Part shown: positions 36,001 through 39,000 of the stretch, one piece after another
Position numbering within the stretch: position 1 is the first letter of the stretch
Layout of the letters: each line of letters opens with the position of its first letter
Source: Roseibacillus sp.
GTDB lineage: Bacteria > Verrucomicrobiota > Verrucomicrobiia > Verrucomicrobiales > Akkermansiaceae
Direction: 5' to 3'
Assembly (NCBI GenBank): GCA_051251855.1
Contig: JBPOGI010000001.1
Span: 256,001 to 320,000, forward strand
DNA: 64,000 nt
Program-made: the position numbers

Positions 36001-39000
36001 TACGTTCTGCGAAGGTGTTGACGTCGGTGATGAAGCTGACAATGGCCTCAAGAGTCCCACGCAGGTCGATGGCAGCCATCTTTTCAGGATAGGCTGCGAG
36101 GAGGGCGGCGTGGGAGTTTCGGACAAGCTGGCACTCTTCGTCGTCGTATTGATAGGCGGTGAGCTCGCTGCCAAGGGAGGCCTTGGTCATGTTGAGTGAA
36201 CGGTTGAGGAGGTTACCGAGTCCGTTGGCCATCTCGGAGTTGAAGAGGACGAAAAGGCGCTCGGGATTGTAGTCTGAGTCTTTGCCGGTGGCGATGTCGC
36301 GAGCGAGGTAGTAACGCACGGCATCGGAACCAACGGTATCGATGAGTTCCATGGGGTCGATGATGTTCCCAAGTGAGCTGGACATCTTCTGACCGCTACT
36401 ATTCCAGAATCCGTGAACCAGTAGGTCCGGCATTTGTTCGTTGCCGAAGCCCATGGCATGAAGCATGCAGGGCCAGTAGACAGCGTGGGCTGGGACCATG
36501 ATGTCTTTACCTATGACGTGAAAATTCGCAGGCCAGAGGGTGTCGAAGTCGGGGAGTTCGCTGCCTTCTTCCTTGAGGTAGCCGGCAAAGGAAATGTAGT
36601 TGATGAGAGCGTCGAACCAGACGTAGGTCACAAAATTTTCGTCGAAGGGGAGGGGGATGCCCCATGAGAGTCGTTCCTTGGGACGAGAGATGCAGAGGTC
36701 AGTGGACTCGGCCTTTTCGATGGCGTTGAGCACTTCACTCTTTCGAAATGCGGGCGTAATGCCGAGAGCGTCGGACTCGACGGCTTCGCGTAGCCAAGTG
36801 GTGTGCTCGGAGAGCTTGAAGTACCAGTTCTCTTCTTCGAGCTCGACAACTTCGCCCCACTCGGCGCCAAAGTTGCCGTCCTCGCCGCGCTCTTTGTCGG
36901 TGAGGAATTGTTCTTGGCGGACGGAGTAAAATCCAGAATAGGATTTTTTGTAGAGCTGACCTTTCTCGTAAAGATCGGTGAGGATTTTGGAGACGCAGGC
37001 CTTGTGACGAGGGTCGGTGGTCTCGACCCAGCCGTCATTTGAAATGTCGAGAGCGGTGAGAAGTTGAGTGAATCTTTCGGTGTTTTGAGTCGCAAGGGCT
37101 GCGACATCGACCCCTTCTTTTTCAGCAGTTTGCACCATCTTTTGACCGTGTTGATCGACGCCGGTGAGAAAGTAGACTTCTTCGCCACAAAAGCGATGGT
37201 AGCGGGCGAGGACATCGGTGAGGACTTTCTCGTAGGCGTGACCGATATGAGGTGAGCCGTTGGGGTAGTCGATAGCGGTGGTGAGGAAGATCATGTTTAC
37301 TTGTAGGAGGGTTGAGAAAGGTGGGACTGGAAACCAGACTTTTTCCTGAGAAAGAGAGGTCCTCCGCGCTTCTTAAGAATGAGCGAAGAGCTTTGGCTGG
37401 AGTTTTCGAAAGATAAGTGTGCCAGCGAGGGCTCCTAGGATGTCGGCGGTGAGGTCGCCGGAGTCGTTGCCAGAGCGGAAGGGATACCAAGATTGGTGCC
37501 ATTCGTCTAAGGAGCCCACTGCGAAGAGGATGAGAACGACCAATAGGTGAATGGTGCTCCAGTGAAAGTTCCGGCGCTTCTGAAGGAAGAGGGTTGCGGT
37601 GAGAAGGCCAGCACCTCCGAAGAAGTAGCCGAAATGGAGAACCTTATCAACGGGGTAGTCGAGAGGTAGTTTGGGACCCTGGAGGGGACGACTCGAAAGA
37701 GTCCAGAGAGTGACGAACCAGACCAGAAAGAGGCCCGACCATAGGTGGTGCCGTCTAGCAAAGGCAGGAGTTTTCACGGCTTTGGAGCGACGGGGAATCC
37801 CAAAATGGTTTAATCCATTTTCCGCATTTCGTCTTCGAGACGCTCGGCGAGCCACTGCTTGATCATGGACTGATAGTTCAGGAACCGTGAGCGGGCGATG
37901 CGCTTGATGCGCGAAAGCATGCGAGGGTCGAAGCGAAGGGTGATAGTGGTCGATTCGCGGGAATCGGGGGCGTGAAGGGAGCCTTGCATCAGACGCGGAG
38001 CTAAATCGTGGTTGCTCCAAAATTTGGCTTCGTCTTCTTCTTCTTCGAAATCGGGGATTTCGTCCCAGCTGGTGATGGTCTTCATTTACTTGAACTCGGC
38101 GAACTTGCGTTCGTAAAAGGTTTGCTCGTCATCACTGGCGTTGCGGGCTGCAACGACGCGGACTTTTTTGCCATCTGTTGAGAAGGCGAGGAAAAGGTAG
38201 CGGTTGGAAATCGACTTTCCAATGGCATAGAATCGAGACTCGCCATCGGAACGGTCGTTCTCGGGCAAGAGTCGTACCGCGAAGGGGTCTTCTAAAGCCT
38301 CCTCAATTTCGCGGGGTTTCATCTCCTTGGTGTCGAAGGAGACATCTAAGATATCCAGTTCCATGTGTGCAAGTGAAAGGTGCGGTTGGATTGCCCACTC
38401 TTCAAGGCAAAATGAGGACAGTGGGAAAGGAAGAAGGGTGACTGGCGAGAGTTGGAGGGAAGGCGCTTTTTCTCAAAGAGCCGTCTTTTCTTCTCTTATT
38501 GGGCTGTTCTGCGAGGGCGGAAGGTCCTGTAGACCCTTTCGCTACTGACATTTTGAAGGGTGGTTGCCAAACTTTTCGGTTGTCAGATGTTCTTTTTGGG
38601 GTCACTTTAGCAACGCGCAAGGTTGTCTTTGCGTTTGAACTAACCAAAGGAAAATTATCGCAGGACCGCCAAGAAGACGAGGAGGAGGAGGCCGCAGACG
38701 CGGGAGAGGACGTGGAGGTCCTGGATTCAAGAAGAGTAATATCCGTGAAAAGGATGGCGAGGCGAAAGCAGTCGAGATTGAGGGCACTGTAAGTGCGGTA
38801 TTAGCAGGGACAATGTTCAAGGTTGAGTTGTCGAGTGGACACGAGGTTTTGGCCCACATTTCGGGTAAGATGCGGAAGAGGTTTATTCGATTGGTAATTG
38901 GCGACAAAGTCAAGATGGAGATGTCTCCTTACGACACCTCCAAGGCTCGGATCGTTTATCGGTTGGGCTGAGTTTTCTCTCATTACCTTTTTTCTTTGAG

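Follow-up and report, generated by a model that had tools for sequence, protein, structure and literature searches.

A Probable AUC Start Codon and a Basic N-Terminal Tail on Initiation Factor IF-1 of Akkermansiaceae Point to Possible infC-like Control of infA

The window analyzed here, a 64,000-nt stretch of the Roseibacillus sp. genome (assembly GCA_051251855.1, contig JBPOGI010000001.1, forward-strand positions 256,001 to 320,000), carries an infA gene that most likely starts at the ATC at position 38657 and encodes an IF-1 of 104 amino acids. The start region is well supported by comparison across the Akkermansiaceae and suggests control through a near-cognate start codon, a kind of control known in bacteria from infC, on a gene for which we found none described; it is joined to an apparently unreported N-terminal tail. 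Sequence comparison supports the position of the start, the coding nature of the tail, selection on the codon, and its pairing with a Shine–Dalgarno (SD) sequence; translation from the ATC in vivo, a feedback, and any role of the tail are inferences.

Results

infA Probably Starts at an ATC

In the infA frame, open after a TGA at 38636–38638, the first ATG, GTG, or TTG is met at 38813, which bears out the preliminary description in its claim that no canonical start lies upstream. The features of the locus are as follows (window positions).

37810–38364, minus strand: BrnT/BrnA-type toxin–antitoxin pair, the upstream neighbor, divergent from infA
38636–38638, plus strand: in-frame TGA closing the infA frame six codons 5′ of the ATC
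38647–38651, plus strand: SD-like AAGGA, 5 nt 5′ of the ATC, complementary to the canonical anti-SD
38657–38659, plus strand: putative near-cognate start ATC, followed by GCA (Ala), from family comparison and start profile
38660–38761, plus strand: N-terminal tail, residues 2–35, Arg/Gly/Pro-rich with an acidic end, predicted to be disordered
38741–38743, plus strand: second in-frame ATC (residue 29), a possible minor start for a tail-less product
38762–38971, plus strand: IF-1 OB-fold core (TIGR00008, PF01176) and TGA stop
38777–38815, plus strand: starts of the database calls, ATT 38777 (64 aa) and ATG 38813 (52 aa), both within the fold
38998–39028, plus strand: intrinsic-terminator-like hairpin and T run 3′ of infA

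The infA HMM covers residues 37–103 of the 104-aa product (91.8 bits against a cut-off of 61.15). Because the ATG at 38813 is residue 53, beyond the first predicted strand (residues 39–48), the 52-aa call drops 16 HMM-matched residues together with that strand. The HMM match and the conservation in the family thus uphold the earlier proposal that the gene called at 52 aa truly begins at an AUC (C1:294657, window position 38657) and encodes 104 aa, and we hold translation to start at this ATC with high confidence. Two of the original figures needed adjustment: the ATG does lie inside the fold, the 20 residues said to be missing being slightly high against the 16 matched residues lost, and the Arg/Gly-rich tail is present, its length ahead of the core being 35 residues (with the core boundary as cut in this analysis) and not 30. 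An ATT at 38654 was rejected as the start, since only 2 nt separate it from the SD and it shows no conservation.

Because its upstream neighbor is divergent, infA looks monocistronic. A promoter scan at infA returned no σ70-like site (0.5 expected). The 16S end was not found in the window's genome (G000); the anti-SD was read from the 16S ends of four relatives, where it is canonical.

The Near-Cognate Start Is Kept in Two Thirds of the Family

A survey of infA searched 121 genomes, 119 of which gave a match, one of them a fragment. We examined 114 of the 118 full matches (omitting G081, G105, G113, and G028) together with G004, G189, and G197, 117 genomes in all, assigning starts by reading N-terminal patterns by eye. 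Akkermansiaceae starts are ATC in 64 genomes, ATA in 6, and ATT in 5, which gives a near-cognate codon (AUH in the mRNA) in 75 of 117, and ATG in the other 42; the genomes are related, and these counts are not independent. The AUC start is kept in about two thirds of the family, not in all of it, so that its earlier description as conserved across the family holds for 75 of 117 genomes and fails for the 42 with ATG. Near-cognate codons are found in genera g1, g4, g5, g7, g8, g9, g10, g13, g15, g16, g17, and g18, and in all three genomes of a sister family, f6; genera g3, g6, g11, g12, and g14 have ATG at the same place. The state is uniform within each genus except the Akkermansia-like genus g2, with eight near-cognate and four ATG starts.

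No canonical codon lies between the upstream stop and the core in 51 of the 75 near-cognate loci, and in 14 a stop stands at most one codon before the start. In this family infA is, in this sense, an initiation-factor gene with a conserved AUU, AUC, or AUA start and, at those 51 loci, no canonical alternative. The codon that precedes the start varies (ATT 23, GTT 20, CTT 9, others 23), as had been claimed, and the base at −1 is T in 72 of 75; the start itself interchanges among ATC, ATA, and ATT within the clade. By-eye reading of 37 loci from the order's other five families gave an ATG or GTG start at each and a tail at 25. A phylum sample (the best-scoring 30 loci from 61 genomes, and hence biased to high HMM scores) was tail-less or nearly so, with ATG or GTG. 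The tail is thus a trait of the Verrucomicrobiales, older and wider than the AUC start.

Codon, Tail, and Leader Support a Start at the ATC

When a leave-one-genus-out nucleotide profile of the start was run frame-blind across as many as 600 bases of upstream sequence, the top-scoring site was in frame in 75 of 78 loci and coincided with the assigned codon in 73; all five exceptions are long-tailed loci of g2 and g17. The start is ATC in 64 of 75 genes, compared with 197 ATC, 173 ATT, and 16 ATA among the core Ile codons of the same genes (197/386 ATC). Between within-genus pairs, the start codon differs in 37 of 324, as against 129–179 of 324 for three core Ile columns. Selection on the near-cognate codon is supported by these comparisons.

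The tail has a dN/dS of 0.215 in 74 near-cognate pairs and of 0.215 in 76 ATG pairs, with 0.021 for the core; sequences were aligned as protein, and the pairs lack mutual independence. Divergence at the three codon positions shows a third-position bias in the tail (0.17/0.14/0.41) that the sequence upstream of the start lacks (0.51/0.51/0.46). That the tail is coding in both start groups and evolves as protein is thereby strongly supported. Moreover, the start region is predicted to be less structured in near-cognate than in ATG loci (mean −3.6 vs. −6.6 kcal/mol).

An SD (5 nt or longer) lies ahead of 43 of 75 near-cognate starts and of 1 of 42 ATG starts. It is located 4–9 nt before the ATH codon, at 5–7 nt in 41 of 43 cases. 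The preliminary description had placed the start often behind AAGGAG; this describes those 43 loci and not the 32 without an SD, which include g4, g5, g7, g9, g16, and 11 of the 12 g18 genomes. The Verrucomicrobiales are reported to lack SDs globally (PMC10798248), and both the order and Akkermansia muciniphila are described as SD-poor (PMC10798248, PMC10783764). Among ordinary ATG genes of the window's genome an SD was found at 12 of 470, fewer than the 22 of the internal control. A scan of the genome for an SD followed by ATH gave 26 matches, none convincing except infA. Pairing of an SD with the near-cognate start in an otherwise SD-poor lineage is supported, but it should not be overrated: besides the 32 near-cognate loci that lack an SD, SDs occur in the family at rplL (9/37) and rplJ (6/35), and at none of 40 rpoB loci.

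On a tree of RpoB from 40 genomes, f6 and the Akkermansiaceae form a clade (98/93), the five ATG genera are one clade (100/98), two ATG g2 genomes are another (100/100), and three changes of start state are required. A history of one gain and two reversions is most likely, because f6, g2, g8, g10, g13, g15, and g17 share the same SD-bearing leader; three independent gains are possible, the base of the family being poorly placed on this tree.

Other Genes with Near-Cognate Starts

The infC gene of the window's genome starts at ATA, as first reported. Across 30 family loci infC starts at ATA in 14, ATC in 10, ATT in 3, and GTG in 3 (AUH in 27 of 30), with an SD in 14. In g2, infC starts at GTG in seven of seven genomes (L253, L255, L258, L308–L311), five of which have AUH at infA; with this GTG, IF3 may control its own gene less strongly in g2 than is usual, or no longer do so. 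Over 35 genomes, AUH is found at both genes in 17, at infC only in 11, at infA only in 5, and at neither in 2, without covariation. As separate observations, at the infC loci L276 and L259–L282 the near-cognate start is followed by a short, basic extension of the IF3 N terminus, and the IF3 of G000 has a long acidic C-terminal tail.

The queG gene (G000:C6:708073–709101, minus strand; L245) starts at ATC without a clear SD. The claim of ATC in seven of eight loci of the genus proved correct for genomes with a match; in g18 two of seven have ATC, four GTG, and one ATG, and the 24 loci of other genera all have ATG or GTG. A DNA search with the queG locus found nothing further. queG is a separate, mostly genus-level case without an SD and gives no support to a regulatory reading.

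A coding-potential scan of G000 gave 61 candidates, recovered infA, infC, and queG, and added a superfamily-1 helicase (AAA_11/AAA_12; G000:C6:632691–635405, minus strand; L392, L401, L402) with an apparent SD-less ATC start, which is ATC in G000 and G002 (two of two in the genus); six of seven other loci have a canonical codon at or near the start. Most of the 61 were rejected as contig ends, read-through or broken genes, antisense frames, or plain upstream leaders. A comparison of 285 ortholog pairs (about 0.7 Mb, five relatives in the genus) flagged 54, among which only infA and queG, both included by design, were near-cognate; neither screen detects a gene that happens to have a canonical codon upstream. 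Such starts are rare in this genome, and the four candidates (infA, infC, queG, and one helicase), with none new among the 285 pairs, do not amount to a genome-wide relaxation of start-codon use. A 441-codon frame at G000:C9:335769–337094 (minus strand; L400) has a coding signal and no canonical start for 288 codons.

In the initiator tRNA (G000:C1:941782–941858), A29:U41 replaces the first of the three anticodon-stem G-C pairs. The same pair is present in every initiator tRNA match (67 of 71 order genomes matched), including ATG lineages, other classes, and four other members of the phylum. This variant was rejected as the cause of the switch, since it is present in both ATG and AUH lineages.

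The Tail and the IF-1 Fold

The tail is 27–168 residues long (median 34) and consists of 22% Gly, 22% Arg, and 11% Pro. Before its last seven residues it holds a median of 10 Arg and Lys and 0.5 Asp and Glu, and it is thus basic and then ends acidic. None of its columns is conserved, and its length varies six-fold. In the predicted structure, pLDDT is under 50 over most of residues 3–35, and the core is a confident OB fold that superposes on solved IF-1 structures at about 1–2.5 Å. With an HMM score above the curated cut-off, the OB fold, and one copy, the product has the marks of a bacterial IF-1. Very long tails of Gly/Pro/Arg repeats, of 144–200 residues and longer than the core, were seen at L302, L192, L213, and L217. 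Many genomes of the family also contain a second, divergent IF-1-like gene (31–43% identity, about 70–80 aa, canonical start, tail-less; L393–L399, e.g., G063:C261, G013:C20, and G010:C1); PF01176 scored above its cut-off in the two tested, and none was found in G000 with this infA query.

Bacterial IF-1 entries in the PDB, of which 12 were found, have 71–87 residues, so that the protein resembles bacterial IF-1 in its core HMM score and OB-fold superposition and differs in the 27–168 residues that precede the core. A basic, apparently disordered N-terminal tail is a mark of a/eIF1A, and with that family the protein shares such an extension on the IF-1/eIF1A OB fold. In contrast, the eIF-1A HMM matches the core only and far below its cut-off (28.3 bits against 102.9), the infA tail has no conserved residues, and the predicted fold closes with a strand at residue 103, with no helical subdomain and no C-terminal tail. 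Between the family profile and an eIF-1A chain there is a weak match over positions 6–96 (E 0.0066), which composition alone could give, and a fold search found IF-1 and eIF1A structures through the core, the tail columns aligning at high rmsd and being uninformative as to likeness. The N-terminal tail of yeast eIF1A is reported to contact the third base of AUG and to be disordered on AUC (PMC11472065). The infA tail resembles it in character only, and convergence seems likelier than common origin. We hypothesize that the tail may act at the P site; a simple electrostatic tether to rRNA or mRNA would be an equally plausible role.

Discussion

In bacteria, the AUU, AUC, or AUA start codon of infC is described, for Escherichia coli and others, as the target of autoregulation by IF3 (PMC5499595, PMC7797042, PMC4705826). 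A fidelity feedback of the same type on infA is the reading we favor, with moderate confidence. According to this model, AUC 38657 would initiate with fMet to give the 104-aa IF-1 with its disordered basic tail, and selection would keep the codon near-cognate because it places synthesis of IF-1 under the initiation fidelity checkpoint, in the way of the AUU of E. coli infC. The unstructured leader, together with the SD in many lineages, would keep the 30S subunit on the AUC. With IF3 and IF-1 in ample supply, the mismatched complex would be discarded no later than 50S joining; with both in short supply, it would pass, and more IF-1 would be made. infA should therefore be read more when IF3 or IF-1 is short, an expectation drawn from a start region built like that of infC.

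IF3 would probably be the main sensor, with IF-1 as its helper. IF1 is reported to support IF3 at the 50S-joining checkpoint, where noncanonical codons and over-long SDs are rejected (PMC4611024), and in wild-type E. coli raised IF1 is reported to have left initiation from the noncognate AGG unlowered, whereas IF3 lowered it (PMC6868393). IF-1 as its own sensor is disfavored because an excess of IF1 did not repress the AGG start there. Taken separately, a feedback led by IF3 is a tentative but substantial possibility, and one led by IF-1 is rather unlikely. Against any such feedback count the lack of covariation between infA and infC states and the 32 of 75 near-cognate loci without an SD. In addition, control of infA would seem dispensable, because 42 of 117 genomes, in at least two lineages, use ATG.

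The proposed control would resemble that of infC in that an initiation-factor gene carries a conserved near-cognate start, and an SD, AUH, and an Ala codon occur at both genes in relatives. It differs in that the gene is infA, its product only a helper at the checkpoint, and its control conjectural; in g2, infC has GTG while infA has AUH. In the strict sense of IF3 autoregulation, in which the regulated gene encodes IF3, infA falls outside the class, its product being IF-1. infA may thus work like infC control, yet it is not that circuit. Two other systems offer partial parallels. In SD-poor Bacteroidetes, rpsU and rpsR are reported to keep an SD for autoregulation (PMC7797042), and here too a translation gene retains an SD in an SD-poor lineage; however, those genes encode proteins that occlude the anti-SD, which IF-1 is not known to do, the infA SD goes with a near-cognate codon, and rplL and rplJ have SDs as well. 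Eukaryotic eIF1 is reported to autoregulate through the poor context of its own start (PMC4705826) and is likewise a fidelity factor with a suboptimal start site, but it depends on scanning and is the counterpart of IF3, not of IF-1.

A different, somewhat unlikely reading accepts that the AUC is real and selected and supposes that it holds IF-1 constantly low, the SD offsetting part of the loss, with output insensitive to factor levels. AUC is reported to cut output several-fold in E. coli reporters (PMC5499595), ATC starts are found on queG and the helicase, genes unrelated to initiation, and the ATG lineages lost the SD along with the codon, which fits a simple retuning of output; since queG and the helicase carry ATC without an SD, the codon can become fixed here without obvious regulatory logic. 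Many other ways to lower output exist, however, and the persistence of a near-cognate codon through changes among ATC, ATA, and ATT, paired with an SD where SDs are scarce, follows the layout of infC. By the established mechanism, moreover, any AUH start is exposed to IF3.

It is improbable that relaxed selection on starts allowed ATG to drift once to a tolerated ATC, neutrally or nearly so. The ATC starts of queG (seven of eight in the genus, two of seven in g18) and of the helicase (two of two in the genus) and the A29:U41 pair of the initiator tRNA would fit such drift; yet the tRNA variant is common to ATG and AUH lineages, the 285 ortholog pairs gave only infA and queG, and starts are ATG at rplJ (34/35), rplL (37/37), and rpoB (38/40), the rest of these loci being unscored. 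The near-cognate state of infA, moreover, is held across two families.

Very improbably, translation starts at a near-cognate codon near or inside the core, and the tail is leader RNA. The ATC at 38741 would yield an IF-1 of normal size (76 aa), and the 64-aa NCBI-source call for this gene uses the ATT at 38777, but neither codon is conserved beyond part of the genus (38741 encodes Ile in six of nine genus genomes and is variable in other genera), the tail shows protein-like evolution and in 42 genomes comes after an ordinary ATG, and the SD lies 4–9 nt before the upstream ATH. Finally, it is hardly credible that a short upstream ORF ending at an in-frame stop hands ribosomes to the ATC. Such a stop stands no more than two codons from the start in 16 near-cognate loci, 10 of which offer a canonical codon farther upstream in frame, but the upstream frames vary in length from 2 to 163 codons and share no peptide across genera, 6 of the 16 lack a start codon, and most loci have no stop so close.

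Returning to infC-type feedback, a bolder version of it joins the codon to the tail. An eIF1A-like tail reaching the P site could have evolved in the Verrucomicrobiales independently of eukaryotes and made IF-1 a true inspector of start codons in ribosomes that mostly initiate without SD pairing. Later, in the Akkermansiaceae and the sister family f6, IF-1 would have come to regulate itself through AUC, and with infC at GTG in Akkermansia, infA would have replaced it there as the fidelity-sensing gene. We regard this as quite unlikely.

In a full-text literature search that covered few subscription papers, we found no description of a natural non-AUG infA start or of a tailed bacterial IF-1. 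Some automatic database records already start at the ATC: one from NCBI (P0041), which from residue 2 onward equals the ATC frame of L129, and one of 165 aa from A. muciniphila (P0128). Most IF-1 records of that species among the 40 examined (of 162) have 49–66 aa. An essential protein of A. muciniphila is mostly annotated at 52–66 aa, against the roughly 165 aa that its DNA supports. The tail also contradicts the published view, as stated in PMC11472065 and PMC4705826, of the N-terminal tail of eIF1A as a eukaryotic addition. infC is the textbook case of near-cognate-start feedback in bacteria, and infA would be the second initiation-factor gene of this kind, across two families. If this is true, then the level of IF-1 would be tuned to the fidelity of initiation, and infA would be a natural reporter of the role of IF-1 at the checkpoint, a role that a 2026 preprint still calls poorly understood (bioRxiv 10.64898/2026.06.26.734871); for this, the family supplies matched natural AUC and AUG variants.
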